64,000 nucleotides of DNA from a virus (taxonomy: Duplodnaviria > Caudoviricetes): IMG/VR virus record IMGVR_UViG_3300032030_002802, positions 135,079 to 199,078 of that record; one strand, given 5' to 3'. Below are positions 19,575 to 38,468 of this stretch, in pieces. The notes beneath the pieces were generated by a model that saw only the letters and a program-made list of their open reading frames with translations, made no database searches and had not been told where the DNA came from. Made by a program: the position numbers and the translations under genes. Position 1 is the first letter of the stretch; each line of letters begins with the position of its first letter.

Positions 19575-20156
19575 CTATTCCTGCGGCTGGGCCTGGTAGT
19601 CAGACGGCTGGCCTCCCCTGATGGCCCTGTCCACGGCGTATATGCCGCCGGCCATGACGCCACCGGTGCCGACGCGGGCGCCCATCGACTTCCAGAACTC
19701 GCGGGTCCGCTCAGCGTCGACCCCCTTGAGTCGTCGGCTGAAGTGCGAGACATCAGCGCGGGTAGGCAGCGACGGGACAGCCGCCAGCTGCCGCCTGACG
19801 GACTCTGCGCGGGCGTTCAGCCGGTTGACGCGGTCCATCACGCCAGTCCCGCCCTCGATCACGCCCTCCAGCTCCCTGTCGCGCAGCTTTGTGATCGCCT
19901 CGAGACGCGACGTCAACTTCGGAATGGCCGACCTGTCCGGGTGCAGCCTGTTCCAGAGGTTCGAGTACTCCCCGCTGAGCCGGTCGAAGCGCGATCCAGT
20001 CAGCAGCTCGTTGTACCTGCCGGCGAAACCCCTTGCACGAGACAGGGCACGCCCCATCCAAGCAGGGAGAGCCTGCTTGTACAGGGCCGCTGGGTCTACC
20101 CCGAGGGCCTCGGCCGCCTTGCAGAAGCCGGCGGCGTATGCCTCGTCTCGCGTCAT
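19575..20156 (-). CDS. Hypothetical protein with AGFCKAAEA leader cassette, 193 aa
   Basis: Begins MTRDEAYAAGFCKAAEALGVDPAALYKQA-LPAW; paralog of 37839-38438. Confidence 0.75.
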   Translation of the reverse strand: MTRDEAYAAGFCKAAEALGVDPAALYKQALPAWMGRALSRARGFAGRYNELLTGSRFDRLSGEYSNLWNRLHPDRSAIPKLTSRLEAITKLRDRELEGVIEGGTGVMDRVNRLNARAESVRRQLAAVPSLPTRADVSHFSRRLKGVDAERTREFWKSMGARVGTGGVMAGGIYAVDRAIRGGQPSDYQAQPQE

Positions 20157-20187
20157 CGTGCTACTCCAAGCTCAACTTGTGCACCCG

Positions 20188-21051
20188 CTACTGCCTCTGC
20201 CCCTGCGCCTGGTCAATCGCCTTGTTGATCATGCGACGTCTCCCGAAGTGTGCGCCAGCCAGGAGAGCACCCAGTATCGGGGAAGCTACAAGTCCTAATT
20301 TACCGGCCAGGGAACCGGTGTGCGCAAGACGTCCAACCGCCTTTGCGACACCAGGGTGCCGCGCTGAGAACGTAGGGGCGAGTTTCCGGACATGGCGTAT
20401 CCAATGTTTCGCCTTCTCGTTCCCTGCACCCATATTGTCCATTGCCGTAAACACTACCGGCACCCCGAGCGTTCCCGCCGTCGCAGAGCCCAATATGCCG
20501 GCCCAGTTACCGACGTTGCTCGTGCGGTACTTCTCGATGTCGATCCCACGGTCCTTCTTCGCCTTGAGCTCCTGTACAAGCCGCTCCTGCGGGGTGTAGT
20601 CCGGGAGATTTGCGCTCACCCAGTCAGACACCCCGTCCGCCACCTTGGCCAGCGCCCCGGGGTCGACCCCCATGGCCTCGGCGGCCTTGCAGAAGCCGGC
20701 GGCGAACGCCTGCTCCTCCGGAGTGGGCTGGGCCTCAGCGGCCTTGGCCGCCCCCTGGGCCTTGCCGAGCAGGCCCGCGATGAGGTTCCTGGCCGTGCCG
20801 ACTCCGTTGCGCAGGCCCTGCTGCCAGCGCGGGTCGGTCATGAGCTTGTACCCGCCGTAGCCAAGAGCCGCGCCAAGCGTGCCCTTGCCAATGCGCTTGA
20901 GCATCGACTGGTCGTCATCCGTGACGGCAGAGCCGCCTAGTGCGCCGCCTCCGGCCATCGCGAGCGCCCCGGCAATCTGCGCAGGGTCAATCGCGGCCTT
21001 GACAAGCACGGCCCTGCGTGCCTGCGAACGAATTGCTGCTGTCTTGTTCAT
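20188..21051 (-). CDS. Hypothetical two-module protein with KTAAIRSQARR leader and internal AGFCKAAEA cassette, 287 aa
   Basis: AAGGAG RBS; glycine-zipper segments on both sides of the cassette. Confidence 0.75.
   Translation of the reverse strand: MNKTAAIRSQARRAVLVKAAIDPAQIAGALAMAGGGALGGSAVTDDDQSMLKRIGKGTLGAALGYGGYKLMTDPRWQQGLRNGVGTARNLIAGLLGKAQGAAKAAEAQPTPEEQAFAAGFCKAAEAMGVDPGALAKVADGVSDWVSANLPDYTPQERLVQELKAKKDRGIDIEKYRTSNVGNWAGILGSATAGTLGVPVVFTAMDNMGAGNEKAKHWIRHVRKLAPTFSARHPGVAKAVGRLAHTGSLAGKLGLVASPILGALLAGAHFGRRRMINKAIDQAQGQRQ
20654..20718. repeat. 65-bp exact repeat, copy 1 (copy 2 at 38296-38360; diverged copy ~20077-20136)
   Basis: gccccggggtcgacccccatggcctcggcggccttgcagaagccggcggcgaacgcctgctcctc is identical in both places. 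Confidence 0.95.
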
Positions 21052-21062
21052 TACTGTTCTCC

Positions 21063-23510
21063 TTACTGGTCTGCGTCTATTGTCTTGCGGCGCAACGTAA
21101 GCGCCAAATTGCCGAACTGCTTGAACACGCTGCGGAGCGTGTCCTCGAGCTCCGTCGTCTCGGACGTGCCGTAGCGCTCGCCGAAGTCCTCGTTCTTCCA
21201 GTAGTACAGGAAGAGGACCCGGCCGAGCCGGTCCACCGCCTGCATGAACGACGGGATGTAGGAGTCGATCAGCGAGCCGGTGTCGTAAACCTTCGCGAGA
21301 CCGCCGATCGACGAGTAGTCGAACACGTGGCGCTGCCCGAGCTGCCCGGCCTGCGCCGCAAGGTCCATCGCCTCCTGGTCGATCGGGGCCTCCCCGGCGT
21401 TGCCGCCCGGGCCGCCGCTCACGTCCGCGCCGCCGTAGCCCTGCTGGGTCTCGCCCTCGCCGCCGATGTTCTCGCCCAGCGGGTTGCCGTGGGGGACCGG
21501 CGGGGCGCCGTACAGGGGCGCGGTGACCTGCTGCTCGTACGGGCCGTACACGGGCGTGCCGGTGTACGGATCCACGCCCGGAGCCTCTGGCGGCGGAACC
21601 GGCATCTGAGCGCCGACGAACTGCGCGGCCTTGCCGAGATGGATGTGCGTGTGCACCTCCCTGTCCTCAGCCGCCTTCGCGAGCAGGCTCTCTGTGTCGT
21701 CCACGGACAGGCCGAGCCCGCCGGTGAGGGACATGCACGCCTGCTTGTAGTTGTACGGGCGGCTGAGTCCGAAGCCGTCGATGCGGACGTAGAACTCAGG
21801 ACCGTCCTTCAGGACCGTGAGGCCGTGGAACGCCGCCTTCTCCATGCCGAACTTGAGCGACGTGATGTCGCCGAGCGACAGGGACGGGGGCTGCTCCTCC
21901 TTGTGCTTGTCGCGAACGTCCCACGGGGCTTCGAGCACGATAGCCCTGTAGTTTGACGGGACGAGGATGCGGTCCCCGGCCTTCACGGCCTTTCCGGTGC
22001 TCTTGGTGAGGGTGAGACCATGGCAAGGGCTATAAGACCGCTCCGGGCGAAGACGTCCGCTGCGGTCGCGGTAGGGGTCGCCCTTGTAAATGTCGAACTC
22101 GCCGTTGCGCGCCCCGTACGAACCGCACGGGCTGCACGCCTCGTCGCAGCAACAGCCGCCGCCCAGGTAGCCGTCGACCTTGTCGTTCTCGCCGGGGGTG
22201 TACTGCACACCGTCGACCCTGAAGCCTACGATGCAGTGCCTTCCGCTCTTGTCCACGAGCGCGTACGTATACCCCTCGGCCATCTGCGACAGCGGGATGC
22301 CCGTGTCGTAGAGCCCGTCCGCCTCCGCGAGGCGCTGGCCCTTGACGTACAGCGTGTCGCAGCCGGTGATCCCGCGCATCTTCAGCGTACCTTCCGGATC
22401 CGTGACGACTACGGTGCGGCCGGGGCCTTCCTGGGTCGGGATCGTCTGGAGCACCCACGCGGGCTGCGTGGTGCCGTCGGCCGTGAGCACGTCGTACTTG
22501 CCGACGCCGTCCGGGGGCGAGAACGTGGCGGCGTGGTCGTACTCGTACGTGCGGGACAGGGACTGCGGGTCGCGCTTGTCGTCGATGAAGAAGCCGTTGC
22601 AGAGCAGGCGCTGGCGGTCGGCGACCGACGTGTCGCCGCTCGCGTCGTCCACGATGCGGAGCTTGGGCTCCTCCGCCTTCTTGCACCCGTTCGCCGTCTC
22701 CCTGAACTGGCGGACGTAGAGCGTCTCGACGTTTGGGTAGACGGTAAGCGCCGCGTTCGCGAACTTGACGTTCGTGCAGAGCGCGTCGAACAGGGACGAG
22801 ACCGCCTTTGGCCCGCCCCGCTCCGACAGCCAGCGCACCAGGTCGCCCGACTCGGCCTTCTTCGAGAGCTCCTTGCCGTTCAGCGCGCCGACGAAACCGG
22901 CGAACGCCTCCTGCATGTCCTTGTCGGACTTGAGCTTCTCGACCGTGGTGCGGCACATGGCGTCCCACGCGGCCTTGAACAGCGACTTGCCCTCCTCGAA
23001 CTCGTCGTAGCCCTCCGCGTCGCGCGCGGCCGCGGTCTTGGAGCCGTACGCCGCCCCGATGCTCGGGCGGCGGACGAAGTCGAAATTCGGGTTCTCGAAG
23101 TCCGGGCGCACCCTCTTCGCGTCAGCCGAGTCGCCGAGCTCGATCGAGTCGCGCTGGATGACGTTGTCGACCCACTCCTCGGTAAGCGGGAAGAACATGT
23201 TGGTCTTCTTTGAGAAGATCATGTCGACTCCGCGCACCTGGTTCGCGATGAAGAAAGCCGGTATGTAGTAGAAGTCGTCGCCGACCTTGAAGCCGAACAC
23301 GCCGATAGCCTTGCTGCCGTCCGGCTCGTGCTCCACCACCTCGAAGCCGAGGACGTAGCGCATCAGCTGCGCCGCCCTGTCGGCCACGAACATGTAGGCG
23401 AGCTTGGAGAAGTCCTGCTCGAGCTGCTCCTCCTGCACGTCCATCTGCGCTACTTTTGAAAGCTGGCCCACTGCTCCAGGCATGGCCGCCCTGAGGTCTT
23501 CGTAACTCAT
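21063..23510 (-). CDS. Large hypothetical head-module protein with K-x-A motifs, 815 aa
   Basis: Long GC3-biased ORF; SKVAQ, SKTAA, SKKAE, CKKAE, EKAAF, GKAAQ; Cys cluster CCCDEACSPC. Confidence 0.8.
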   Translation of the reverse strand: MSYEDLRAAMPGAVGQLSKVAQMDVQEEQLEQDFSKLAYMFVADRAAQLMRYVLGFEVVEHEPDGSKAIGVFGFKVGDDFYYIPAFFIANQVRGVDMIFSKKTNMFFPLTEEWVDNVIQRDSIELGDSADAKRVRPDFENPNFDFVRRPSIGAAYGSKTAAARDAEGYDEFEEGKSLFKAAWDAMCRTTVEKLKSDKDMQEAFAGFVGALNGKELSKKAESGDLVRWLSERGGPKAVSSLFDALCTNVKFANAALTVYPNVETLYVRQFRETANGCKKAEEPKLRIVDDASGDTSVADRQRLLCNGFFIDDKRDPQSLSRTYEYDHAATFSPPDGVGKYDVLTADGTTQPAWVLQTIPTQEGPGRTVVVTDPEGTLKMRGITGCDTLYVKGQRLAEADGLYDTGIPLSQMAEGYTYALVDKSGRHCIVGFRVDGVQYTPGENDKVDGYLGGGCCCDEACSPCGSYGARNGEFDIYKGDPYRDRSGRLRPERSYSPCHGLTLTKSTGKAVKAGDRILVPSNYRAIVLEAPWDVRDKHKEEQPPSLSLGDITSLKFGMEKAAFHGLTVLKDGPEFYVRIDGFGLSRPYNYKQACMSLTGGLGLSVDDTESLLAKAAEDREVHTHIHLGKAAQFVGAQMPVPPPEAPGVDPYTGTPVYGPYEQQVTAPLYGAPPVPHGNPLGENIGGEGETQQGYGGADVSGGPGGNAGEAPIDQEAMDLAAQAGQLGQRHVFDYSSIGGLAKVYDTGSLIDSYIPSFMQAVDRLGRVLFLYYWKNEDFGERYGTSETTELEDTLRSVFKQFGNLALTLRRKTIDADQ

Positions 23511-23830
23511 TGTCCAATCCTCCTGTACCCGGGGATGTTATCGTCTGAAAGCGGTTTCGGCGTAAAGTACTTGTCCGCGATCGCGCGCAGCCCGGCGCCG
23601 ATCGCGCCGCGGATGCCGTACACCGGCGTGGCCACGGAATTGCCGGGCTGGGCCTGGACGGCGCGGATCTGGTCCTTGATGTACTGCTGCTGCATGACGT
23701 TGTACGAGAAATCCGCGCCGACGCGGTTGAGCAGGTCGTCAAGAGTAGGCTGGGGGGCGGACGGGCCGCCGAAGAACCCACCCGCCTCCTTCACCGTGCT
23801 GCGTAGCTCTGCGATCATGCTCATGGTCAT
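23507..23830 (-). CDS. Hypothetical protein, 107 aa
   Basis: ATGA-type overlaps; N-terminal ...TVKEAG. Confidence 0.65.
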   Translation of the reverse strand: MTMSMIAELRSTVKEAGGFFGGPSAPQPTLDDLLNRVGADFSYNVMQQQYIKDQIRAVQAQPGNSVATPVYGIRGAIGAGLRAIADKYFTPKPLSDDNIPGYRRIGQ

Positions 23831-24564
23831 ATCATCTTGTTGGAGTAGCCTACCTGGTAGAACATTTTCTTGTTCGAGCCGAACGAGTCGGGGAGCCCCT
23901 TGCCATAGTTCGGCGTGGTCGACGGACCCGGCGGCTTGATCTTCGCCCCCTCGTACTTGGGGTTGTACGCCCCTCCCCGGATCGCGGCGCTGCCGGCGCG
24001 CGACTTGTACTGGTCGGCGTAGTCGTCGGTGAGCCCCGCGTGGACGCGGTTGACCTCGCTCATGTACTGCTTGGCGTCGTTCACCCTGAAGTCTGCGTCC
24101 CGCACGAACCCCTCCTGGAGGGCCCCCGCGACCTCGGGCGCAGTGGTCATGTTCTCGGAGACGTAGTTGTCGAGCCTCTGGTTCTCCATGTCCCGCAGCT
24201 CGCGGTCGTACGCCGCTGCGTCAGGTACGTTGCTGCCGCCGAAGAAACGGCGTATGCCGCTCGTCCACTTACCGAACCGGTTGCTGATCCAGTTCCCCCA
24301 GCCCGCGTTCGGGCTAAAGGCCCGCGAATACCAGTTGCGGGAGCTGAGCGCAAGTTCACGCGCCTTCTCGGGGGTCATCTGGGCATAGGGGTTCTTCTCA
24401 CGCCACTCCCTGTAGTTGTCGTGCATGTTCTGCGCGGCGGAGTCCCAGAAGAGACCGGCCTCCTTCGTCAGGACGCTGGCGACCCCGTCCGCATAGGCCG
24501 GGGACACCGCACCGGATTTCACGAGCGCGTCGAGCGCGCCCAGGATGTAGGCCGGGGTGCACAT
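23827..24564 (-). CDS. Hypothetical protein, 245 aa
   Basis: Leader AYILGALDALVK...AYADGVASVLTKEA followed by an aromatic/basic domain. Confidence 0.7.
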   Translation of the reverse strand: MCTPAYILGALDALVKSGAVSPAYADGVASVLTKEAGLFWDSAAQNMHDNYREWREKNPYAQMTPEKARELALSSRNWYSRAFSPNAGWGNWISNRFGKWTSGIRRFFGGSNVPDAAAYDRELRDMENQRLDNYVSENMTTAPEVAGALQEGFVRDADFRVNDAKQYMSEVNRVHAGLTDDYADQYKSRAGSAAIRGGAYNPKYEGAKIKPPGPSTTPNYGKGLPDSFGSNKKMFYQVGYSNKMI

Positions 24565-24566
24565 GG

Positions 24567-25064
24567 TTACGACCCCGCTATCACGGCCGGCGCCGCCTGC
24601 TGCGCCTTGCCCTGCAGGACGGCGATGAGCGTGTCGAGCTTGGCGCTGATGTCGGCCTGGGGCTGCTGGGCCTGCTGCTGCGCCGGCGCGCCGTTCGCGC
24701 CGAACGCCGCCATCATCTGCTTGATGAACTTGGTGAACTCGTCGGCCGTCATGTTGATCATGCCGGTCTGCGGCGCGCCTCCCGCCATCGACGGATCAAC
24801 TGGCGGCATGCCGGCCATCGGGTCGCCGCCCGGGGGCATCCCGCCCATCATGGACGGGTCCACGCCGGGGGGCATCCCGCCGGCCCCCGGATCGCCGCCG
24901 GGGGGCATCCCGCCAGCCCCGGGGTCCATTCCAGGAGGCGGCATGCCACCTGCACCCGGGTCGCCGCCAGGCGGCGGAGGGCCGCCCGCGCCGGGATCGC
25001 CCGGAACGAAAGCGCGCTTCACAAGCACGGCGCGGACTGCGTCCGCCATAGATCGTCTGGTCAT
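24567..25064 (-). CDS. Pro/Gly/Met repeat protein, 165 aa
   Basis: AAGGAG RBS; about six (G/M)DPGAGGMPPG units after the leader RAVLVKRA. Confidence 0.75.
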   Translation of the reverse strand: MTRRSMADAVRAVLVKRAFVPGDPGAGGPPPPGGDPGAGGMPPPGMDPGAGGMPPGGDPGAGGMPPGVDPSMMGGMPPGGDPMAGMPPVDPSMAGGAPQTGMINMTADEFTKFIKQMMAAFGANGAPAQQQAQQPQADISAKLDTLIAVLQGKAQQAAPAVIAGS

Positions 25065-27107: not shown

Positions 27108-28700
27108 TCAGTCTCCGAACGACGCAGGGAAATTGGTAACCGTGCCGCCAAGAGCCTCTACGACTGCCTTGAGGGCCTTAGCCCTATCGGCCTCCGTGCC
27201 GAAATTAAAATACTTACCGGCAAGCGGCTTGACCGGCTTGCGCGAAGAGTCGATCAACCCCATATTCTCCAGATCCTCACGACGGATGACGCTGTTGTAC
27301 GCATAGTCATTGAATGCCCACGTGACACCCCAGGAGCTAACCTCGATGCCACCGGACCCCGAGGTAACCACTGAGCCGTCGGTAAAGCGGATCCCGCCGT
27401 TATAGCCGACGGACAGCTCGCCATCGAGGACGGCACCGGTGAAATCCGCGCTATCTGCCGTCACCGTACAGCCTGCTGGAAGCCCGAGCGCGGAAACCAG
27501 CTTCTCAGCCTCGGCGAAAGTCCGTCCCACAAACGTAATGTTCGCGAGGCCGGCACACCCCTGAAGTGCGTCTCTGTCGATATAGCGCACGCTAGGCGAT
27601 ATTGTCAGGCTGGTAAGGCCGCGGCACTGCCCGAACGCGTTAGCGTCGATGCGGGTCACGCCGTACGGAACCGTCACGTCGGTAAGACTAGTACAGCCGT
27701 AAAACGTGTAACTCTTAATACTCTGCATATTGGATGGCAGGGTTACCGCGCTCAGACTGGTGCAGCCCTGGAATACAGCGCCGCCAACGCCACCCACGCT
27801 GTCTGGCAGCACCACCTCACGCAAACTCGTACAGTTATAAAACACAGAGTTTCTAACACGCGTTACGCTAGCTGGTATCACCACGTTAGTGAGACTGGTG
27901 CATCCGGAAAACGACTGGGAGGCAAGCTCGGATATACCAAGCGGCAGCACCATGCTCTCGAGACCAGTGCAACCCCTGAACGCCCCTGCCCCGATAGCGG
28001 ACACACTGGTGGGGATCACCACGTTAGTGAGGCCGGTGTAATCCCTGAACGCCCCGCTGCCGATGCTCGTCACACCGGTGCCGATTCGCACAGACACCAC
28101 GTTGTCGAAATTAGTAATCATGCCAGCTGTCAGCTCGCCCTCTATGTTGAAAGAGGCGGCCGTCCTGCCCGCATACACTACGACGGTCTTCCGGGCAGCG
28201 GCCTTCTCAAGCGCCCACGCGCGGGCATTGGCATTCGACGCCGCAATGAAGTTATTCGTGGCGTAGAGCCGTAAACTGTCAACCCACTCAAACAACGCAG
28301 CTATATTCGCGTCAAGCGCATCAGCGATGTTCCTAGTATCACCAGCCAACGCCTCTACGCGCTTAACCACACCCGCATGCCGCGGCCCCAGGACAGACTG
28401 ATCGTACGCCCCGATCAGGTCGTTAACGGCATTGGTGTCGACGCCGCCGGAACCGCCGGAACTGCCTTCGCGCGGCTGTATGACCGTGCGGTCGTACTCC
28501 GCCACCACCTCGCGCACCGCGTTGGTGTCTAGCCCGCCTCCGGTACCGCCCTTGACGTCGACCACGACCAGGTCGTCGCGGTGAAGCGAGCCGAGACGGG
28601 CCTTGACTACCCCGTCGGCATCAAGGCGGCTACTGGCGCAGCTGGCCGTTAACGCCAGCACGATCGCCGTGACAACTCTTTTGTGCAGCATGTTTTTCAT
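27108..28700 (-). CDS. Secreted BspA-type leucine-rich repeat (LRR_5) protein, ~530 aa
   Basis: Signal-like KRVVTAIVLALTASC; about 8 repeats of IPxSVxxIgxxAFxGCTSLxxV; lower GC than flanks. Confidence 0.85.
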   Translation of the reverse strand: MKNMLHKRVVTAIVLALTASCASSRLDADGVVKARLGSLHRDDLVVVDVKGGTGGGLDTNAVREVVAEYDRTVIQPREGSSGGSGGVDTNAVNDLIGAYDQSVLGPRHAGVVKRVEALAGDTRNIADALDANIAALFEWVDSLRLYATNNFIAASNANARAWALEKAAARKTVVVYAGRTAASFNIEGELTAGMITNFDNVVSVRIGTGVTSIGSGAFRDYTGLTNVVIPTSVSAIGAGAFRGCTGLESMVLPLGISELASQSFSGCTSLTNVVIPASVTRVRNSVFYNCTSLREVVLPDSVGGVGGAVFQGCTSLSAVTLPSNMQSIKSYTFYGCTSLTDVTVPYGVTRIDANAFGQCRGLTSLTISPSVRYIDRDALQGCAGLANITFVGRTFAEAEKLVSALGLPAGCTVTADSADFTGAVLDGELSVGYNGGIRFTDGSVVTSGSGGIEVSSWGVTWAFNDYAYNSVIRREDLENMGLIDSSRKPVKPLAGKYFNFGTEADRAKALKAVVEALGGTVTNFPASFGD

Positions 28701-28723
28701 GTCGATAAGTCCTCGCTGTCTGT

Positions 28724-28752
28724 ATTGTACCATGATTCGCCAAAATACACAA
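28724..28752 (-). promoter_or_regulatory. sigma70-like promoter TTGTGT-N17-TACAAT (extended TG)
   Basis: Intergenic, between the RNAP stop and the LRR gene. Confidence 0.55.
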
Positions 28753-28764: not shown

Positions 28765-31700
28765 TTACTGGCTTAAGATGCTCACGGGGTCGTTCGCGCC
28801 GATCTCGCCGCGCCTGTACGCCCGAATCGCATCGCGCGCGGTCACGAACACACGCGGCCTGGCCTTCGACTGCGGAGCCGTCAGCCTGGCGAGACCGAGG
28901 GTCATCTCCATCATGGGGACGTACCGCGGCGACCGCAGGTCGGTGGTGGAGAACAGGTTCTTGCTCGGAAGCATCTTCTCGATCGCCTCGGCGACGGCCT
29001 TGTCGCTGGACGGGACGTGGAAGTTCATCGTGTCCCCGTCGTGATCGGCGGTAAAAGCCTTCTCGACGACCGGGTTCATCCGCATGGTGTTGCCCTCGAC
29101 GAGCGACGGCCAGAACGCCATGAGGTTGAACTTGTGCCACGTCGGCGCGCGGTCGAGGATGACCGGCCTGCGGCCCATCTCCTCGAGCAGCAGGTCCTTG
29201 GCCACCGGCTCGCGCTTCTCGATCAGCTCGGCCGCGCGCTCCTCGGAGTACCCGCGCCTGCGAAGCCCGCGGATGACGTAGTCCTTGTAGAGCGTCCACG
29301 CCTCGTTCTCCGGGATGCCGCACTGGTCCATGTCGTAGTTCGGCTCGGGGCTGATGACCGCGCGGCCGACCGAGTCGACAGCCTTGGATATGACCTTCGA
29401 CTGGAACAGCCCGAGCTTCGGACTTGTCCCTATTACCTGGCGGATGGCGCCCTTGAGCCGCTTCGCCTGGCCCTCGGGGCTGATCGGGTCGCCAAGCCCG
29501 TATGCAGCCTTGACAGCGTTGTACACGTTCAGCCGCTCCTCCGTGAGCCCGCTGTCCGGTACGTCCTTCTTCAGCTGCGAGAACGCGTCGGCAGATTCGA
29601 TCACGTCGCGGTACAGCTCGTTGATGTCGCTCACGAGGGCCGTGTCGCCCACCTTGGCGATCGGGCGGAACATCGGCGGAATGACCGGGATCTTGGTGAT
29701 CATCCAGTCCTTCGGCTCGACGCCCTGCTTCTTGCACCCGGCCAGGTAGCCGAGCACCTTCACGGCGTTGTCGCGGGCGGACCCGCGGGACTTGCGGACT
29801 ATGTCGCGCTGGCGGCGTATCTCCGCGTCGACGTCGATCGCGCCGAGCGCGGCCTGGAGCGCCTTGCCGCCTGTCATGCCGTTCAGCTGCTCCTCGCCGG
29901 ATATGACGGCCTGGAGCTTCTTGCCCGTGAGCCCGAGCAGCCTGCGGACGGGCTCCTCCATTACCGGATTCGGCACAGGCTCCGGAAGGGCTATCGCGGC
30001 CCACCGGCTGCGGTTTCCGTTGCCGCCGGTGAGGTACGGGTCGAACAGGCCGCCCTTGATCTCCTTCAGCTCGTCGTTGAGCATCCTGGAGTTCTGGATC
30101 ACGCGGCCGCCGGTCAGCTTGTCGGTATCGGCGTCGGTCATCGGGAGGATGTCGGTCGCGCGCTGCCCCTCGACTACGTTGATCCCGCCGGCGCGGAGGA
30201 GGTTCATGGCCTTCTGGTACACGAACGGGACCTGCGGCATCGGAAGCGGACCTCCGCTCCTGACGGCCTTCCAGTACTCCTCGTTCTTCGTGCCGCGGAT
30301 CGTCTGGACGTCCTTCATCACCTCGGTCGCGCCGTGCGCGATCAGGGCGTAGGTGTCGAGACCGGAGTTAGAAACAAGGCAGTCCGAGGCGCAATACTTG
30401 TGCGACCCGGCTACCGTTATGTCGTAGAGGCATATCTCGTCGTCCGGGCCGTGCTTGGGATCCTTGTACGGCTCCACCCGCGTAACAAGCACTGGAACGC
30501 TTCCCAGCGTATACGCCGTGTCCACGCCGACATACTCGTGCGGCATAGCGGCCACCTCCTTCACCAGCCACTTCTTGGAAGGAGGTATGTCCCCTGGACG
30601 CATGTATCTGGCCACTAGGCGAACCATGGCCCTGCACGCATCAGCGGACAAGCCGAGATAGGAGTAGTGACGAATCTCGCCGTTAACGCGCTTATGCAGA
30701 TCCCGAACCGAGACCGGTGCGCCGAGCCTGCCCTGCAGCCAGGATGCAAGGCGCTCGTTCTCGGCATGGGTGAATCCCTGCGTGGATATCGTGCCTGACG
30801 GACTGCCGGTAGGGACGCCGTTCTTAACGTGCCCAACGATGCACCCGTCGTCCACGAACCACGCCACTATGCCGACGTCGCCTATGCGGCTGAGGTCGAC
30901 ACGGTCTAGGTTCTTGCGTCCGAAGCTGCCGTCCGGCTGCCTGTAGAACATGTCCCTGAGGGGAATGACTATGTCGTGCCTGTGCAGCTCGTAGTACGAG
31001 ACGCGTACGCCCTCTCCCGACCCGTACCCGGAACGGCTCTTGCCCTGCGTGCTGCTCCGGCTGGACACGAGTGCACCGAGCGAACGCACCTTCCAGCTGA
31101 CATACATGTCCTGGTGGTGGCTGTGCTGCTCGTTGAAGTACGCCATGTTGGCGGTCTTCCCGCCGCGCACCTTCCACAGCCCGCCGTGCACGTTGCATAT
31201 TGCCCCGTCCCCGAGCATCGACCCCATGAGCAGGGACATCTGGTCATGCGTGGGTACATACCCGTAGCTGGTCAGCCAGTCGCCGGGGCGGACATCTCCG
31301 GCCAGTATCTCGCCGCGGTCCGGCGAGTACAGATGGTGCTGCCGGGTCACGTGCATCGTCTTCCCGGTGTACACCACGCGCTTCCTGGCGCAGTTGTCGC
31401 TGCCCGGAAGCCCGTCCACCGAAATGCTCAGCACCTCCGATACCTTCCCCTTCCGGCAGAACCAGTTGGTCACGAGCGAATAACCCCAGCTGCCGTCGGC
31501 GAACCGGGTCCAAACGTACTCAGGGATGCGCTTCTCCACTATATGGCCTATCGACTCCTCGCCGTGAAGGACGCGGATAGGCTGAGACGCGATGAAGCAC
31601 ATGCGCTTGGCACCGGTCTTGCCGCCCTTGGCCGGCTGCAGGTCGGCGGTGTATCCGCCTGCACCGCCCTTTGCGGAGATCTTCTTGTCGGCCAGGTGGT

Positions 31701-34410
31701 GCATGGCGTGGAAATACACGTAGCCGTCGCCTATGCCGTGCAGCGTGCGTCCGGTCTCCGGGTCGAACACGTCCGCCGTGGGGCTGACCCCGGCCGCGGC
31801 GAGCTGGTTGGACGCCCAGCGGGCCCAGCCCTCTGGCGGAGGGTCCTGCGGGATGCGCACCTGCCGGCCCGTGGCCTTGGCGAGCTTGCCGAGAGCGGTC
31901 TCGATAAGCTGGCCGGGCGCGACCCGCGACGGGATGCCCATCGGGTTCATGAGGATGTCGTACGGCTCGTTCGTGGCCGCGTCGCGCGGCATCTTGTCGT
32001 CCGGCACGATCCGGCCAACGACGCCCTTCAGCGCGAAACGCGGGCTTAGCTTGTCGGCGATCTGCATCGGGGGCGTCGCCTTGACGTTGACCTTCGCGCG
32101 ACCGCGGAACACGGACGAGCTGACCACGGTGCCGGGGTAGTCGTGGTCCCACACCTGGGACTTGTCCGTGAACGCCCCGCGCAGGACCTTGCTGAGCTTC
32201 CCTAGGTTCGCGTCCTCGGCCGTCAGCAGCTTCGGCCCGACGGCGACGGCGATCGGGTCGCCCTTGTTGAGGACCGTCCCCTCCTTGACGACGCCGTTGT
32301 CGTCGAGGGTGGCGTACTGCTCCTTGGTGAAGCGCTTCGGGAACGCGGACATGTACTTGTTGAGCCCGAGCGTGCCGCCGTCCCGCGGGTCCGACTCGAA
32401 TCCGTAGAGACGGTCGGTAGCGAGCTTCTTGGCGGCGGACTCGCTGATGACGATGGCGTCCTCGTAAGAATAGCCCTTGTACGGCAACCACGCCATGCGC
32501 AGGTTGACCCCCATCGACAGCCCGCCGGTCTTCTTGTCCACGAAGTTCGACGCTGCAAGCATGTCGTCCGCAGCCACCTTGTCCCCGACCTTGACGGTGG
32601 GGGTGTAGGTCAAACCGGTGAGCCCGTTGAACGGGAAGTCGGTCACTGTCTCGACGAAGTGCTTCTTGCCCTGCGCGTCCGTCACGGTCACGCCCTTGTC
32701 CGTGACCTTCGTGACGACGCCCTCGGCTGGCGACCGCAGCGTGCCGAGACGCCGGCCGTAGTGCTCGCTCCAGGTCATCTTGCCGTCCGGCATCAGAGAG
32801 TCGACGAGCGGCACCTCGCCCTTGGCCGTGGGCAGGTACTGCCCCCAGAACTTCGCGCCGTAGAACTGGCGCCCGCCCTGCACAGACGTGGGCATGGGGT
32901 TGAGGTTCACGTTCGACGAGAACAGCCCAGACATGCTGGGCACGAAGTAGTCCACCTCGTCGCGCGGCACCATCTGCACGCGTCCGCCCTTCATGGCCGG
33001 GATGCGCTCCGCCTTCGGATCAGGGTTCGGAAACCCGATGACCGAGTCCGAGGCCTTGTCGCACGCTACGTACTCCCTGCGCCCCTGGCGGTTAAGAAAA
33101 AGCGAATACAGCCTGCCGTCGGACCCCTTACGGGCGTGCACGCTGAGACGGGCGTCAACGCCGATCTTCTCGTTCTCGGGACCGGCCAGCACGTCGATGT
33201 AGTTGAGGTTGCCTGGGTTCACCTGCCGCGCCTCGTCCGTCACCACGTCCGCCGACCCGATGCCACCCTCGCCCATGCGGGTGACGCGCATCATCTGCTC
33301 CTCGAGCGCCATGGGGTTCGAGTTGTCCCCCGGCATGGCGAGGCCAGACCCCTGCAGGAGCTCGTTGTGCCACCCAGAGAACGCGCCGCGCCCTACAGGC
33401 TTGAGCGACCCGGCACGGGAGATCTTCGCCATGATGTTGCGCGACAGCTTGCCGGCGTCCTTCTCTATGCGCTCGCGGTACAGGTCCTCGATGCCGAGCA
33501 CGTTGGCGAAACCGGGATTGTCGCGGTCGTCCGGCTTCTCCTCCCCACGGTTGACGTTGAACATCTTGGACGCGGCGCGGAGAAGCACTTCCGGGGTGAT
33601 GCCCTCGGCTGCGATGCCGAGGGTCCTGACCGTGACGCCGGGGTCAAGGGCGAACTTCGGCAGCGTGTCCGCAAGGTACCGCTCCTTCGACACGAGGTCC
33701 TGGGCGGTGGCGTTATAGCCGGCGAACGCGCTGTAGAGCTTGTCGACCGCCGACCGCCCGGCCATGCTCGCGGCCTTCGCCGCATTGGCGTGGGCCACGT
33801 CCGCGCCCCAGGCCTTGACCATCTGCTGGTCTGACACGCCGAGGGCCTTGAGAAGCGGATACAGCGGCATGTTGGCGTGCCCGACGTTGACCGTCACCAC
33901 GCCGGTGGACGGCTCCATGCGCAGGCGGAACCCGCGGCCCGTGCCGGGGCGGACGTTGAACTGCGTCTCGACGTCGCCAGACCGGCGGACGCGGGTGTAC
34001 ACGCCCGGCCGGAGCCTGAGCTGGTTGGCCACCGTGTACTCGCTGCCGTTGTTGATGACCGTCCCGCGGTCCGTGTAGTACGGGACGTGCATGACGACCT
34101 CGTCCTTCTCGTCCACCACGGCGTTGTCGGCCTTCCGGATGAGGCGGAAATGCCCGCTGACCGGCGTGTGCAGCGGCTGGTCGTTCAGGAGCGCGTGCTT
34201 CTGCTGCGCGAGCGTGAACTCCTGCGGGCCGGTGTACCTGACGTCAGACAGCTCAAGCCTGTACGACTTGTTCTCAAGCGGGAAGCGCCTCTTGAGCGCC
34301 TCGAGCGTACCGGAGTAGATTCCGGCACGCGCGGCCTTGGGGTCGTCGAACGCCCGCAGAGTGACGCCCTGCGGGACGATGGGCTCGTCGTCTGTAATAG
34401 TGTCTGCCAT
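28765..34410 (-). CDS. Phage DNA-directed RNA polymerase: beta subunit fused to N-terminal half of beta', intein-containing (1881 aa precursor)
   Basis: ATG at 34410 with AGGAGGAG RBS. Beta motifs INNGSEY..QL, GYSYEDAIVIS, DKLSPRFALKG, NPMGIPSR; beta' motifs GGLFD, PVIPPMFRP, GRAVISP, RAPTWH, TADHDGD. Confidence 0.92.
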   Translation of the reverse strand: MADTITDDEPIVPQGVTLRAFDDPKAARAGIYSGTLEALKRRFPLENKSYRLELSDVRYTGPQEFTLAQQKHALLNDQPLHTPVSGHFRLIRKADNAVVDEKDEVVMHVPYYTDRGTVINNGSEYTVANQLRLRPGVYTRVRRSGDVETQFNVRPGTGRGFRLRMEPSTGVVTVNVGHANMPLYPLLKALGVSDQQMVKAWGADVAHANAAKAASMAGRSAVDKLYSAFAGYNATAQDLVSKERYLADTLPKFALDPGVTVRTLGIAAEGITPEVLLRAASKMFNVNRGEEKPDDRDNPGFANVLGIEDLYRERIEKDAGKLSRNIMAKISRAGSLKPVGRGAFSGWHNELLQGSGLAMPGDNSNPMALEEQMMRVTRMGEGGIGSADVVTDEARQVNPGNLNYIDVLAGPENEKIGVDARLSVHARKGSDGRLYSLFLNRQGRREYVACDKASDSVIGFPNPDPKAERIPAMKGGRVQMVPRDEVDYFVPSMSGLFSSNVNLNPMPTSVQGGRQFYGAKFWGQYLPTAKGEVPLVDSLMPDGKMTWSEHYGRRLGTLRSPAEGVVTKVTDKGVTVTDAQGKKHFVETVTDFPFNGLTGLTYTPTVKVGDKVAADDMLAASNFVDKKTGGLSMGVNLRMAWLPYKGYSYEDAIVISESAAKKLATDRLYGFESDPRDGGTLGLNKYMSAFPKRFTKEQYATLDDNGVVKEGTVLNKGDPIAVAVGPKLLTAEDANLGKLSKVLRGAFTDKSQVWDHDYPGTVVSSSVFRGRAKVNVKATPPMQIADKLSPRFALKGVVGRIVPDDKMPRDAATNEPYDILMNPMGIPSRVAPGQLIETALGKLAKATGRQVRIPQDPPPEGWARWASNQLAAAGVSPTADVFDPETGRTLHGIGDGYVYFHAMHHLADKKISAKGGAGGYTADLQPAKGGKTGAKRMCFIASQPIRVLHGEESIGHIVEKRIPEYVWTRFADGSWGYSLVTNWFCRKGKVSEVLSISVDGLPGSDNCARKRVVYTGKTMHVTRQHHLYSPDRGEILAGDVRPGDWLTSYGYVPTHDQMSLLMGSMLGDGAICNVHGGLWKVRGGKTANMAYFNEQHSHHQDMYVSWKVRSLGALVSSRSSTQGKSRSGYGSGEGVRVSYYELHRHDIVIPLRDMFYRQPDGSFGRKNLDRVDLSRIGDVGIVAWFVDDGCIVGHVKNGVPTGSPSGTISTQGFTHAENERLASWLQGRLGAPVSVRDLHKRVNGEIRHYSYLGLSADACRAMVRLVARYMRPGDIPPSKKWLVKEVAAMPHEYVGVDTAYTLGSVPVLVTRVEPYKDPKHGPDDEICLYDITVAGSHKYCASDCLVSNSGLDTYALIAHGATEVMKDVQTIRGTKNEEYWKAVRSGGPLPMPQVPFVYQKAMNLLRAGGINVVEGQRATDILPMTDADTDKLTGGRVIQNSRMLNDELKEIKGGLFDPYLTGGNGNRSRWAAIALPEPVPNPVMEEPVRRLLGLTGKKLQAVISGEEQLNGMTGGKALQAALGAIDVDAEIRRQRDIVRKSRGSARDNAVKVLGYLAGCKKQGVEPKDWMITKIPVIPPMFRPIAKVGDTALVSDINELYRDVIESADAFSQLKKDVPDSGLTEERLNVYNAVKAAYGLGDPISPEGQAKRLKGAIRQVIGTSPKLGLFQSKVISKAVDSVGRAVISPEPNYDMDQCGIPENEAWTLYKDYVIRGLRRRGYSEERAAELIEKREPVAKDLLLEEMGRRPVILDRAPTWHKFNLMAFWPSLVEGNTMRMNPVVEKAFTADHDGDTMNFHVPSSDKAVAEAIEKMLPSKNLFSTTDLRSPRYVPMMEMTLGLARLTAPQSKARPRVFVTARDAIRAYRRGEIGANDPVSILSQ
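30367..31599 (-). mobile_element. Intein with LAGLIDADG homing endonuclease (411 aa)
   Basis: AKRM|CFIASQPI... LLMGSMLGDG and VAWFVDDG blocks ...LYDITVAGSHKYCASDCLVSN|SGLD. Removal restores KRMSGLDTYAL (equivalent of QRFGEMEVWAL). Confidence 0.92.
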
Positions 34411-34418
34411 GTCTCCTC

Positions 34419-35960
34419 CTAGTACCCCTGCGCATACTGGGCGTCGTCCCCTCCGCCACCGCCGTACATGTTGTACAGGATCATGGCCGGCAGCCCCAAA
34501 GACCCGGCCCCGCCGTAGAACCCCATCTGGCCGAGGTGCCCGGCGGCGTCTCCGTAGTTGCCCTGGGATGCGCTGCTCGCCATGTTGTACAGCGTATCGG
34601 CCTGCCAGCCGGTCTTTCCGAGCGCAACACGCCCTGCGGGCATGATGGTGTCCTTGCCCCAGTTGAACACGTTCTTCGTGGCCTGCCACGGGTGCATGAC
34701 CGTGTTCTGGATGCTCGCACCGGGATGGCGCGCGAAGTTGTACAACCCGCGTACCGGACGGCCTATGCCGTTGCGGGCCGTGTCCCATATGATACGCCCG
34801 GGACCGCCACGGCCGACAACCGTCTTCTTTATGCCCTCCACCGGATTCGCGAACGTGCCTACGGCCTTGAACGGCATAGCAACGGTCTCGCCCATGGCGT
34901 CTACGCCGTTTGCCACCATGTTGCGCGCGCCCTGCATGGCGCGGGCGCCCCACGACGCCCCGGTAGTGCCGGCGCTCGTGGCCGCCGAGGTACCGCGTAT
35001 CGCACTGGACAGAGCCCTCGTGCCCGCCATGACCCCGCGCCCTGCAAGCTTTCCGGCCGCCCCGAAGCCGGCCGTCGCAAGGGTGTCACCAGCCAACGCG
35101 CCGACCGCGGTATTGCCGAACCGGTTAGCGCCCCCGATCCAGCTTCCGCTGTTGCCGCGCAGATCACTGTCGTGGAAGTTGTTCTCTATGAGCTGCCGTT
35201 TCGCCTCGAACGCCGCATCTGCGTTCGCACGCGTGTTCTGGTACGACCTCTTCCTCTTGAGTGCTTCGGTGCTGTTGCCGTACGAACCCCAGTCCAGGAG
35301 GTACTCATTTCCAAGACGAGCCAGCTGCGCGGCGTTGTGCGCCGCGCTGTTCGCCTGTATCTGGAAATTGTTGGCCACGTCATGGCCGATGGTGCCCCAG
35401 TCCTGGTTGGCGGTCCGGTAATACTGCTTCATCCAGTCGGAGTATGACGTACCCTTCGGGGCGCTGGTGAGGTACGACAGGTTAGACCCTACCGCATCGG
35501 CAATGAGCTTGAACGGGGCGGCAATCGCAGTGCCGATGCCCTTGCCCACGGCCGTATCCCCCCATGTCGACACGCCACCGTTAGCCTGGATCTCACGCAT
35601 GATCTCGGCCCGGCTCTTGCGCTTGACGATCTCAGGGTTCTTCCTGGCATAGGCCTCGAACGCCGCCTGGTTGCGCTTCCTCCGCGCCACGACGTCCGGC
35701 AAATTGTCGTACGCCTTGTTCCCGGTAAGCCCGAACTTGCCGGCCTGGGCCCGCTGCGCCGCCTGCGCCTGCTGCCTGCGCGACTGCTCCATCTTGGCCC
35801 CGTAGTCCGCCGGAAGGATCCGGTTGGTGACTACCGCAGGGGCCGCGCGCTTGTACAGCGCACCGCGGATGAGCCCGCCGACAGTCACCCCCGGCTGGCC
35901 CCTGACGCCGTGCATGTGCCCGACGAGCAGGCCCGATAGATCTGTGCCACGCGTGCCCAT
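34419..35960 (-). CDS. Hypothetical basic Gly/Ala-rich protein between the two RNAP genes, 513 aa
   Basis: ATG at 35960 coupled to the beta'-C stop; leader ends GALYKRA; glycine zippers; (R/M)HP(G/W) repeats. Confidence 0.75.
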   Translation of the reverse strand: MGTRGTDLSGLLVGHMHGVRGQPGVTVGGLIRGALYKRAAPAVVTNRILPADYGAKMEQSRRQQAQAAQRAQAGKFGLTGNKAYDNLPDVVARRKRNQAAFEAYARKNPEIVKRKSRAEIMREIQANGGVSTWGDTAVGKGIGTAIAAPFKLIADAVGSNLSYLTSAPKGTSYSDWMKQYYRTANQDWGTIGHDVANNFQIQANSAAHNAAQLARLGNEYLLDWGSYGNSTEALKRKRSYQNTRANADAAFEAKRQLIENNFHDSDLRGNSGSWIGGANRFGNTAVGALAGDTLATAGFGAAGKLAGRGVMAGTRALSSAIRGTSAATSAGTTGASWGARAMQGARNMVANGVDAMGETVAMPFKAVGTFANPVEGIKKTVVGRGGPGRIIWDTARNGIGRPVRGLYNFARHPGASIQNTVMHPWQATKNVFNWGKDTIMPAGRVALGKTGWQADTLYNMASSASQGNYGDAAGHLGQMGFYGGAGSLGLPAMILYNMYGGGGGDDAQYAQGY

Positions 35961-37813
35961 CAGTACTCTCCCTTCGTGGATATGTCCCTGCCGAGCTCGA
36001 CGCCCTTCGCGAGCGACGGAATGGGGTTGGTGCTGTGAAGCTCTGAATGCGCCCCCTGCTGCGCGTCCTCGAGCAGCCGGTCCTTGAGGTACGACGTCCC
36101 GAGACGCGCCATCCAGTTCCCTGAGTACGCCGGCGACTCGGCCACGCTGACCATGTGCGGCATGACGCCGGGGGCTGTCTTGTTCGCGGTGACCTCGGTG
36201 CAGCCGTGCCGCTTGAGCGCCTTGACGACGCTCGGAGTCACTCGAGTCCCAATGGTGTAGTGCAGCACCGGGGCCTCGAGATACTGCCCCACGGCCTTGT
36301 CCAGGGGCACCTGCGCCGACCCCTCGCGCGGCGTGTACCCGCTCGCCCACGCGCTGTAGCGCACTATGTCGCCAGGAAGCGCGTCGCCCTCGGAGTCGGG
36401 GTTCTCCACCTGCACGTTGTTGACCAGGGCGCGCGAGAGGATCTCCACGTTGCGGCGGTTGACGCCGTAATGCGAGTCCCTGAACGCCTGGGTGAAGCGG
36501 TTCGTGAAATACCTGCGTCCCTCGCCGATCCCCTTGTACGCCACGACGTCGGCCGGGGACACGAGACCCGACGACACCGCGTCGCCGGCCTCCACCTTGT
36601 CGCCGGGCTTGACCGACACCTTCAGCGCGGCCGGGACGTATATCTTGTTGTCGCGGTCGTCGTCTAGCACGACGTACTGGCCGCCCTGCGGCGCGTCCTC
36701 GATCGCGGACACGGTGCCGTCGACGGAGGACACGGACGCCTTCACGTCATACGCCTTGGGCACCATCGTGAGGTCCTTGAGCGCGTCGAACCCGACGTAC
36801 GCGCCGAGGTCGGAGCGCTTTCCGCTGTGTTTCGTGTTGAGAGAATTTTGGGCGATCTGCTCGCCCAAGGCCGACGCCGCGTTCACGCCGGCGTTGTACC
36901 CGATCTCCGGGAACCGGCCGGTCTCGCGTATGCCCACGCACATCTTGCACAGGCCGTCCTTGCACCCGCACGTTATCGGCGAGCGGACAACTATCTCGTC
37001 CTCCCCGGACGCGCGGATCTTGTCCAGCACGGGCTTGGTGATGACCGTGCCCGGCTTGAACCCCGCGACCTCTGACTGCAGCACGGACCCAACGCTGTCG
37101 TTGTCGTCAACCGAGACTGGAACGCCGTTGGCCGTGCCACAGTCGTCCGTTGTCACGACCTGGTCGATCGCGGCCGCGTTCATCATCTTGCTGAGGTAGC
37201 CGCCCTTCTGCGTGCCGAGCTTGGTGCCTATGACGCCGAGGCGCGCGCCGTAGCCTGCGGCCCAGTACTCGTGCGGCTTGAGGCCCTCGGCGTACGCGCT
37301 GCCGATGAAGATAGGAACGATCTTGCCGTCGCTGTCAGTGTAGGTGCCGGGAGACGTCAGCATGGCCCCAAGCTGGTTCTTGTTTCCGCGGGCCTTGTAC
37401 TTCGCCTGGATCGCAAACGGGTTGTTGTTCGCGAGGGCGTTCGAGTAGGTCTCGTCGGTAAGCCGCTTCGTCGCCTCGCCGTACAGGGCCTCGATCGCGT
37501 CGTCCTTCTGGGCCTGGGTAAGCCTGCTGTCGGACAGTATGGCCTGCTCCTGACGCTTCACCTCGTCCAGCAGCGGCTGCTTGTCCACAACCGGCACCAG
37601 GTCGTTGAGGGTTATCGTGGACCCCTCGTCGAACGCCGCGTTGCGCCCGAGCTGGACCAGCTTCCAGCACACCTCGCGGTAGCGCTCGGGATGCTCCCGG
37701 GCGAGCTGGCCGAGAAGCGCGTTGATCTCGTCCTGCCCGAGCGTGCGCGTGTAGTCGCGCATCTCGGGAGGAAGGGCCTCGTTCACGAGGAGCTGCCCAG
37801 GTGTTGCGAGCAT
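35960..37813 (-). CDS. RNA polymerase beta' C-terminal half (RpoC2-like), 617 aa
   Basis: ARGNKNQL; bridge helix EGLKPHEYWAAGYGARLG...GGYLSK; DDCGT; RSPITC..GLCKMC; trigger loop LGEQIAQNSLNTKH. Confidence 0.92.
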   Translation of the reverse strand: MLATPGQLLVNEALPPEMRDYTRTLGQDEINALLGQLAREHPERYREVCWKLVQLGRNAAFDEGSTITLNDLVPVVDKQPLLDEVKRQEQAILSDSRLTQAQKDDAIEALYGEATKRLTDETYSNALANNNPFAIQAKYKARGNKNQLGAMLTSPGTYTDSDGKIVPIFIGSAYAEGLKPHEYWAAGYGARLGVIGTKLGTQKGGYLSKMMNAAAIDQVVTTDDCGTANGVPVSVDDNDSVGSVLQSEVAGFKPGTVITKPVLDKIRASGEDEIVVRSPITCGCKDGLCKMCVGIRETGRFPEIGYNAGVNAASALGEQIAQNSLNTKHSGKRSDLGAYVGFDALKDLTMVPKAYDVKASVSSVDGTVSAIEDAPQGGQYVVLDDDRDNKIYVPAALKVSVKPGDKVEAGDAVSSGLVSPADVVAYKGIGEGRRYFTNRFTQAFRDSHYGVNRRNVEILSRALVNNVQVENPDSEGDALPGDIVRYSAWASGYTPREGSAQVPLDKAVGQYLEAPVLHYTIGTRVTPSVVKALKRHGCTEVTANKTAPGVMPHMVSVAESPAYSGNWMARLGTSYLKDRLLEDAQQGAHSELHSTNPIPSLAKGVELGRDISTKGEY

Positions 37814-37838
37814 TGGATCCCTCTACCCGGTTACCGAC

Positions 37839-38438
37839 TCAAGTGGCCGACTTATCGCCGCCACCAAACGCAGCCCTGCCCAGCCCGTACAACCCTCCAG
37901 CGCCGGCAAGAGCCGTACCAGTCCTCGCGGCGATCATGCCGGTTCTCGCGCGACGGGTCGCATCGATCGCCTCACGGCGTTTGGTGATCAGCCCGAGCAG
38001 GTCGCTCTTGAGCTGGTCTATCCTGCCGCGCAGGTTACTACCTACTGTGGCGTTACTGGCCGCCGAGCTGTGCTGGAATTTTGAATACGTGGACCGCGCA
38101 TTAGCCAGCCCCTTGCTGACCGCGTCCTTGTCACGCCCCAGGCTTGCAACAGACTCACGCAGCTGCTTGAGGCGTGAACCGGTGAGCGCACCCCAGTAGC
38201 TCTTTGCGCCGCGGCCCACGGCCTGCCCTACGCGGCTGTTGGCCACGGCCCTACCGGCGTTTGCGATCCAGGCCGGGAGGGCCTCCTTGTACAGGGCCCC
38301 GGGGTCGACCCCCATGGCCTCGGCGGCCTTGCAGAAGCCGGCGGCGAACGCCTGCTCCTCAGGGGTGAACTGGGCCGCTGCGGTCTTTGTCAACGCGGCC
38401 CTGCGGGCCTGCGAACGGATTGCTGCTGTCTTGCCCAT
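37839..38438 (-). CDS. Hypothetical protein with KTAAIRSQARR leader and AGFCKAAEA cassette, 199 aa
   Basis: Shares DNA repeats with 20188-21051 and payload similarity (LPAW...LTGSR) with 19575-20156. Confidence 0.75.
   Translation of the reverse strand: MGKTAAIRSQARRAALTKTAAAQFTPEEQAFAAGFCKAAEAMGVDPGALYKEALPAWIANAGRAVANSRVGQAVGRGAKSYWGALTGSRLKQLRESVASLGRDKDAVSKGLANARSTYSKFQHSSAASNATVGSNLRGRIDQLKSDLLGLITKRREAIDATRRARTGMIAARTGTALAGAGGLYGLGRAAFGGGDKSAT
38296..38360. repeat. 65-bp exact repeat, copy 2
   Basis: Identical to 20654-20718. Confidence 0.95.
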
Positions 38439-38468
38439 TGCTGTTCTCCTTGTTGTCTGCTTTCGACG

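Follow-up and report, generated by a model that had tools for sequence, protein, structure and literature searches.

We analysed the last 64 kb (hereafter the window, 64,000 nucleotides) of the virus record IMGVR_UViG_3300032030_002802 (Duplodnaviria; Caudoviricetes; 199,078 bp, 65% GC, CheckV completeness 100%), and found that it carries members of a previously undescribed family of small helical proteins, strongly basic and rich in Gly, marked by an almost invariant cassette of 25-28 residues that stands at the front of the protein and closes in the tripeptide K-x-A. The cassette is supported as a portable N-terminal module, placed ahead of varying tails in hundreds of protein clusters. The family, which comprises six genes in this genome, is in our judgement best explained, with the balance tipping a little to this side, by a tag similar to that of phage T4, which would direct a basic internal protein into the capsid and then be cut off.

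In such a system, the conserved front of each protein would act as a pro-region and bring the protein into the assembling prohead. This region would comprise the cassette, with its helix-GVDP-helix layout, and in some members also a leader helix or inserts. A prohead protease with the fold of T4 gp21 would cut the pro-region at K-x-A motifs, finishing with the invariant K-x-A at the cassette's end. The basic tail, free of K-x-A, would remain alongside the DNA inside the head, as an internal protein that either neutralises charge or is ejected. An insert placed between K-x-A junctions, of the kind seen in the gene designated P0002, would be released as a second product, giving the layout of a polyprotein. 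Our account of packaging, of cleavage and its exact bond, and of what the tail does and where it ends up is inferred from the sequence patterns described below.

A family of proteins sharing an N-terminal cassette

An earlier sequence-only reading of the window had named three genes sharing the cassette. All three do carry it, and a search of the six-frame translated genome with a hidden Markov model (HMM) of the cassette brought the family to six, the other three genes being located outside the window at genome positions 9017-10441. A refined HMM, built from 131 cassettes and with the consensus EAYAEGFCKAAEAAGVDPVALYKQA, scores the six genes at E-values from 3e-15 to 6e-7. At least 328 clusters carry the cassette profile at E<=1e-3 in a profile search of 1.84 billion representatives, and the family occurs in a deep clade of ~200-kb phages having a multisubunit RNA polymerase. 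Among 154 retrieved members, the cassette is found at residue 8 or earlier in 98 (64%), behind a short leader in 27, and internally in 29; K-x-A closes 131 of the 133 cassettes collected with a search pattern that itself fixed K/R at that position. No family in Pfam or PHROGs covers the cassette, and no domain from either was found in the tails. Searches of the INPHARED cultured phages by blastn and tblastn gave no match to the region or to family members, and queries with variant cassettes returned from cultured phages only chance matches (E 5-8) in non-cassette parts. From the ESM Atlas came only look-alikes of a generic long-helix kind, none scoring as high as 0.8, and a literature search for the cassette motif strings retrieved no papers.

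The three window genes, all on the minus strand as are most genes of the window, differ in architecture. P0001 (19575-20156, 193 aa) has no leader, and its cassette begins at residue 4; its tail is homologous to that of P0003. P0003 (37839-38438, 199 aa) consists of a leader (residues 1-21), a KAAEAQ-type linker, the cassette (~26-53) and a canonical basic tail ending in a C-terminal glycine zipper, and is encoded immediately ahead of RNA polymerase beta'-C, an arrangement shared with a 96%-identical relative. P0002 (20188-21051, 287 aa) bears out the layout of leader, payload, cassette and second payload that had been proposed for it: the leader is followed by an insert of ~85 residues, a KAAEAQ linker, the cassette (~113-138), and a tail with two hydrophobic segments, different in type from those of P0001 and P0003. 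The insert has glycine-zipper segments and no K-x-A, and every module junction in P0002 is marked by K-x-A motifs. In this genome the leader is confined to P0002 and P0003; a search for it outside the cassette genes of the genome found none, the gene at 24567 giving E 5.6.

In an AlphaFold2 (AF2) model, P0003 is predicted to be all helical, with a leader helix at residues 2-21 (pLDDT ~88), a cassette helix at 26-41, the GVDP turn, and a further helix at 46-65, while the tail is modelled at low confidence. Variant cassettes (GFMDKCAELGVDP) have the Cys moved and retain a linear K-x-A-E that is shifted by one residue. Looser versions of the cassette had also been proposed at five window genes, and only one of them received profile support, and weak support at that: the conserved gene of ~59 aa just downstream of the major capsid protein (MCP) gene (10368-10547, minus strand) has a partial cassette, FMDGFAKVAEDAG, with E 3e-3 in this genome and E 8e-4 for its ortholog in the relative L019. 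The genes at 23827, 24567, 34419 and 42034 gave no profile score. A protein of ~534 aa encoded at 34419-35960, between the beta'-C and beta genes, has GALYKRA at residues ~33-39, a likeness limited to the final seven cassette residues. An internal half-cassette absent from the earlier list, KIAEAAGTDPAGLMKMA, was found at residues 329-345 (E 1e-4) of a K-x-A-enriched protein of 529 aa (38469-40058, minus strand), the gene for which is in relatives always directly upstream of a cassette-family member.

An RYxELLxGG motif and, at the C-terminus, a glycine zipper of the form RKxLAAxxGTG...G..Y recur in many tails, and therefore a canonical full-length family exists, which includes P0001 and P0003; these two can be aligned over ~120 residues with 39% identity (E 2e-18), so that their homology extends beyond the cassette. 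Further tail types are represented by that of P0002, by the type found in P0012, P0006, P0007 and P0040, and by several more. Net charge is positive in 98% of the tails, the median being +8 per 100 residues as compared with a genome median of 0, and the cassette has a mean charge of -1. A hydrophobic segment of transmembrane strength is present in only 6% of the tails. Window proteins had no match to the glycine-zipper Pfam families Gly-zipper_YMGG (PF13441), Gly-zipper_Omp (PF13488) and Rick_17kDa_Anti (PF05433), and the matches recorded in relatives are marked as weak, one relative scoring 19.2 bits against a cut-off of 28.9. Glycine-zipper-like C-terminal segments also occur in the products of 34419-35960, 16304-17242 and 42034-42777.

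The second tandem cluster, at genome positions 9017-10441, consists of three cassette genes encoding 146, 102 and 214 aa, and adjoins genes for an epimerase, RmlC and a GT11 glycosyltransferase. An open reading frame (ORF) of 583 aa located ~2 kb upstream of this cluster has a faint match to a portal PHROG (E 0.01).

The head module, its candidate protease and phage Arash

The cassette genes P0001 and P0002 occupy a hypervariable site, or slot, in a conserved head module, in which head genes and cassette genes are on the same strand and are spaced 11-31 bp apart. The upstream border of the slot is an 815-aa, K-x-A-enriched backbone gene (21063-23510), and the module also includes an acidic backbone protein of 445 aa in which K-x-A occurs 12 times (17242-18579), a predicted prohead protease (14853-16295; ~480 aa counted from an internal Met of the 546-aa ORF 14853-16493) and the MCP (10726-11760), all on the minus strand. 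A search of PDB by sequence gave no match for the 815-aa protein or for the MCP. At 24567-25064 the window encodes a 165-aa protein with Pro/Gly-rich repeats of the GDPGAGGMPP type, which in relatives is found just upstream of genes for 245, 107 and 815 aa.

The N-terminal domain of the 14853-16295 product is, according to its AF2 model (pLDDT 72), a T4 gp21/herpesvirus assemblin fold and hence a candidate prohead protease: the best structural match is T4 gp21 itself (5jbl; Z 9.9, root-mean-square deviation 3.2 A over 131 residues), followed by the herpesvirus assemblins at Z 6-6.8. The protease domain is placed at about residues 40-220. Foldseek placed gp21 at rank 15 (E 0.26), and there is a weak match to a PHROG head protease. 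The protease has at least 674 homologs, many of them on contigs of 190-206 kb. One homolog, P0239, is deposited as a Verrucomicrobiota protein from a metagenome-assembled genome (78-kb contig), which may be a clue to the host or reflect a mis-binned phage contig.

The genome has a single set of multisubunit RNA polymerase genes (as re-cut), which includes a beta/beta'-N ORF (28765-34953, 2062 aa) and a beta'-C gene (35960-37813); among cultured phages, the closest relative of this polymerase is found in Salmonella phage Arash (28% identity). The window beta/beta'-N ORF holds a LAGLIDADG element, and the window protease and beta'-C are without inteins; in two 97%-identical relatives that were compared (L001 and L014), inteins are present in the protease (868 aa; Hint/LAGLIDADG) and in beta'-C (995 aa), with none in beta/beta'-N (1470 aa). 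Intein locations thus differ by gene between near-identical genomes. Downstream of the RNA polymerase genes, at 27108-28733, is a gene for a protein of 541 aa with leucine-rich repeats of the BspA type (LRR_5, E 9e-54), the versions of which in relatives exceed 1100 aa. Elsewhere in the window, at 48000-50500, a very large array of repeats with a 9-bp period (GCTGCCCGA-type) lies on the coding strand of a Ser-rich protein.

Comparison with Arash by BLASTP shows that the order of the head module is conserved: Arash MCP gp226, which is annotated, corresponds to window 10726-11760 (29% identity, E 1e-38), gp222 to 14853-16493 (36%, E 1e-30), and the virion protein gp218, weakly, to 21063-23510 (E 8e-6). 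Between gp218 and gp222 lies gp220, which has a divergent cassette, EEQNIVEGLLKTAAAVGKDPDALSKIA, at E 9.4e-5 in a search of the Arash genome alone, and the N-terminus of which is homologous to that of the window's 445-aa backbone protein. Gp220 was detected by mass spectrometry of Arash virions, as were Gp100 and the RNA polymerase subunits (PMC10585845), beta and beta' being among the most abundant virion proteins (PMC10585845); Gp100 matches the cassette more weakly than does gp220.

These observations bear on the possibility that the family consists of plain paralogous small membrane-associated proteins (glycine-zipper, tail-anchored) that act in the infected cell, for instance in envelope remodelling, lysis timing or superinfection exclusion, and are never packaged, the shared DNA being due to recent duplication and gene conversion. 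The glycine-zipper-like C-termini would suit such proteins, as would the sub-threshold Gly-zipper Pfam matches in relatives, the P0002 segments with Kyte-Doolittle (KD) values of ~1.4-1.6, the location of one cluster beside glycosylation genes, and the ordinary paralogy of P0001 and P0003 over ~120 residues. We nevertheless regard it as quite unlikely, as segments of transmembrane strength are rare in the strongly positive tails, the position in the head module is kept as far as Arash, the Arash homolog was found in virions, and the polarity of K-x-A motifs along the proteins, described in the next section, would be left without explanation.

K-x-A motifs are enriched in head proteins and avoided in tails

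The density of K-x-A is about four times higher in the head block (78 per 3,962 residues) than elsewhere (229 per 46,205), and Glu follows K-x-A at five times the frequency predicted from composition. When the family itself is excluded, K.A is the most enriched gap-1 pair in head-block proteins (70 observed vs 31.5 expected, z 7.9) and among gap-2 pairs K..E ranks first (z 7.0), while in the remaining genome K.A has a z of only 1.2. The protease itself contains 14 K-x-A motifs, and all 31 of its aligned homologs, down to 38% identity, have 11-18 as compared with ~3.9 expected (z 4.7-7.9), with six control motifs being flat. Four MCPs, that of Arash among them, share a conserved V-K-x-A at residues ~24-27. 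Enrichment in K-x-A is also found in Arash gp220 (10 motifs, z 4.5), gp223 and gp225, and 11 motifs occur over the 311 residues of the gp220 ortholog from Vibrio phage D181.

Within the family the motif is distributed with a clear polarity. Upstream of internal cassettes, K-x-A is found 106 times vs 50 expected (2.1-fold), and in 128 tails it is found 43 times vs 134 expected (ratio 0.32, z -9.2), which makes it the most depleted gap-1 pair there; 94 of these tails have no K-x-A at all. The controls A.K, KA, AK, K..A and K...A have ratios of 0.95-1.07 in the tails, and R.A has 1.23. K-x-G is avoided as well (0.43, z -6.9), and K-x-L is enriched (1.67), which hints that the third position of the motif may accept small residues. 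In P0002 and in a 331-aa protein of L019, the motifs are clustered at the junctions between K-x-A-free blocks. Taken at the level of such counts, the enrichment in head proteins and upstream of cassettes and the avoidance in tails support the view that K-x-A behaves statistically like the site of the gp21-fold protease.

A different reading of the motif is that these are virion head or core proteins in which the cassette is never removed and serves permanently for docking or oligomerisation, binding the shell interior, the portal, the scaffold or the packaged RNA polymerase, with K-x-A as a binding or helix-capping motif. It draws on the fact that the cassette is the best-conserved part of the proteins and is a predicted helix-turn-helix, that K-x-A occurs inside the cassette as well as at its end, that variant cassettes keep K-x-A-E despite the one-residue shift, and that P0003 and a variant member in L020 adjoin the beta'-C gene. 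It is hard to square, however, with the threefold avoidance of K-x-A (and the avoidance of K-x-G) in tails, and likewise with the enrichment of K-x-A over many unrelated head proteins, the protease and the MCP N-terminus included, and the overall pattern fits the behaviour of protease motifs in T4 and SPN3US (PMC10052503). We consider permanent docking rather unlikely, though deserving of attention.

The same distribution bears on whether the proteins might be accessory components of the prohead core or scaffold, fully degraded and expelled at maturation, so that nothing would be delivered to the host. While the genes are next to those for the protease and the scaffold, the proteins are helical and of low complexity, and their front half is K-x-A-rich, the tails avoid K-x-A and so look protected from the protease, and their strong positive charge suits proteins that stay with DNA; complete degradation thus seems to us improbable, and we would be surprised if it applied.

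DNA repeats and turnover of family genes in the slot

The DNA repeats reported in the earlier reading could be confirmed to the base: 65 bp at 20654-20718 are identical to 38296-38360, and the 56-bp repeat at 21009-21064 and 38396-38451, which spans the ribosome-binding site (RBS) and the first 14 codons (MxKTAAIRSQARRA), has exactly five mismatches. In codon-block shuffles of the window, the longest exact repeats reach only 15-17 bp. With wider boundaries, the cassette repeat at 20639-20745 has further copies at 20071-20177 (66%) and 38281-38387 (90%), and the repeat of RBS plus leader at 20993-21064 has a second copy at 38380-38451 (83%). Long exact runs also appeared in the adjacent pairs A/B, C/B and P0001/P0002, but were disregarded as an artefact of overlapping flanks. 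Terminal redundancy of the genome, suspected from two equal HMM matches, was ruled out, the genome ends not being identical.

At identical residues, codons are identical in 87-91% of cases for P0002/P0003 and for P0002 and paralog copy A, as compared with 50-74% for older paralog pairs, and the P0002 cassette is a mosaic, with a front as in P0003 and an ALAKVA end as in copy A. Both features indicate that, besides selection acting on the peptide, the genes were recently converted or duplicated. Compared with the window, L014, a relative with 97% identity, carries an additional family gene (179 aa) within an indel of 525 bp. Window segment 20992-21064 (73 bp, RBS plus leader) aligns to both ends of this indel, a pattern characteristic of unequal recombination between homologous copies of the leader repeat. 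The leader repeat is thus supported as a recombination substrate.

In relatives with proteases 51-87% identical, the backbone order is kept, from the ~815-aa gene through the slot and genes for ~325, ~450 and ~310 aa to the protease and the scaffold (12997-14844 in the window) and onward to the MCP, and the content of the slot differs in each genome examined. The slot contains genes for 287 and 193 aa in the window; 179, 287 and 193 in L014; 411 and 175 in the contig carrying P0162; 331 in L019; 123 and 86 in L020; and 125, 137, 168 and 128 in the contig carrying P0260. Tandem arrays of two or three family members are present in L006 and L008. The conservation of the cassette and leader at the DNA level would therefore allow paralog gene conversion and unequal crossing-over, by which the slot gains, loses and re-pairs family genes.

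Such re-pairing is seen in P0006 and P0007, in which a P0003-type leader and cassette are joined to a P0012-type tail, and in P0010, which combines a P0002-type front with a canonical-type tail; P0011 has another insert, and P0008 is a tandem fusion. Payloads thus vary behind the cassette, as the sequence-only reading had anticipated.

Weighing the capsid-tag explanation

Several observations run counter to the proposal of a tag that is loaded and then cut. Full family members are known here from sequence, and the link to Arash is through a divergent cassette, in a 116-protein virion proteome of low specificity that includes obvious enzymes. The RNA polymerase subunits, the presumed main cargo, have neither leader nor cassette. 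The cassette holds an internal K-A-A-E, so that a single cut at its end is too neat a picture, and the neighbours of the second cluster (genome 9-10.4 kb) are sugar-metabolism rather than head genes, which is neutral or slightly unfavourable. As regards the motif, the family sequences are related, and their counts are not fully independent; in the protease only 4 of the 14 K-x-A sites (residues 31, 76, 218 and 279) are kept in at least 90% of homologs, and the lysines of these motifs are no better conserved than other lysines (0.60 vs 0.66, p 0.66). Across the homologs, the density of K-x-A in the protease is kept while positions drift, as expected of a short linear motif.

The original idea of a tag that loads diverse proteins into the head accordingly needs to be narrowed. 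The portable module and the head-module context remain, but the payloads are less diverse than had been supposed: the tails are small, basic, Gly-rich and helical, many are homologous to each other, none has enzymatic or other known domains, and the RNA polymerase is untagged.

Comparison with known systems

The T4 capsid-targeting sequence (CTS) and the internal proteins that bear it provide a precedent (PMC3012670), as do, in SPN3US, the propeptides cut at multiple sites on paralogous ejection proteins (PMC10052503). On the best reading by analogy, the present family would be a functional counterpart of the T4 CTS/internal-protein system combined with SPN3US-type multi-cut propeptides, and not a member of the T4 system; it is set apart from both by a longer, new tag, a new candidate protease motif and a different phage lineage.

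As in T4, where the CTS on IPI, IPII, IPIII and Alt is processed by gp21, a short conserved N-terminal module is found on divergent small basic proteins, closes at the motif of a gp21-fold protease (here the candidate K-x-A), and belongs to genes in a plastic locus. In contrast to the T4 CTS, to which the cassette has no sequence similarity, the module comprises 25-28 rather than ~10 residues and may be preceded by a leader or inserts, and the motif is K-x-A instead of (L/I)-x-E. The tails are low-complexity helices, whereas T4 has folded inhibitors such as IPI*, and the lineage, in which the system is known from genomes, is not T4-like, has a multisubunit RNA polymerase, and has Arash as its nearest cultured relative.

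In SPN3US, phiKZ and 201phi2-1, a gp21-like protease (gp245/gp175) cuts a three-residue motif, A/S/G-x-E (PMC10052503). The N-terminal propeptides in this group have several copies of the motif and are cut into pieces, the substrates including paralog families of ejection proteins (PMC10052503), and RNA polymerase is packaged in the virion (PMC10052503). The group differs from the phage described here in the motif itself, in having protein-specific propeptides as opposed to a portable cassette conserved over hundreds of clusters, and in having two RNA polymerase sets and not one. Arash gp220 offers a parallel from a cultured phage, being virion-detected and K-x-A-rich, with a divergent cassette and a Gly-rich C-terminus, and encoded, like the slot genes here, between a gp218-like gene and the protease gene; however, its cassette is internal and without the GFCK core, and its N-terminal part corresponds to what is here the separate 445-aa backbone gene.

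Implications

A broader proposal, to which we would give somewhat less than even chances, is that the whole uncultivated clade of ~200-kb RNA-polymerase-packaging phages uses a hitherto unknown K-x-A code for head maturation together with a portable address label of 25-28 residues that doubles as a handle for DNA recombination, so that small basic head-cargo proteins and polyprotein modules would be swapped, duplicated and lost at the labels, and the label would suffice to load foreign proteins. The analysis offers K-x-A, or perhaps K-x-[AG], as the candidate specificity of a gp21-fold protease, and a defined 25-residue peptide as a candidate cargo-loading tag, while the combined analysis of motif enrichment and avoidance may provide a general route to prohead-protease motifs from sequence alone. 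If the proposal is true, the family would constitute a natural example of a targeting module the conservation of which at the DNA level drives the turnover of the genes behind it, and capsid targeting and protease trimming in the style of T4 would not be peculiar to T4-like phages, but would recur, with another tag and another cleavage code, in a large unexplored lineage.

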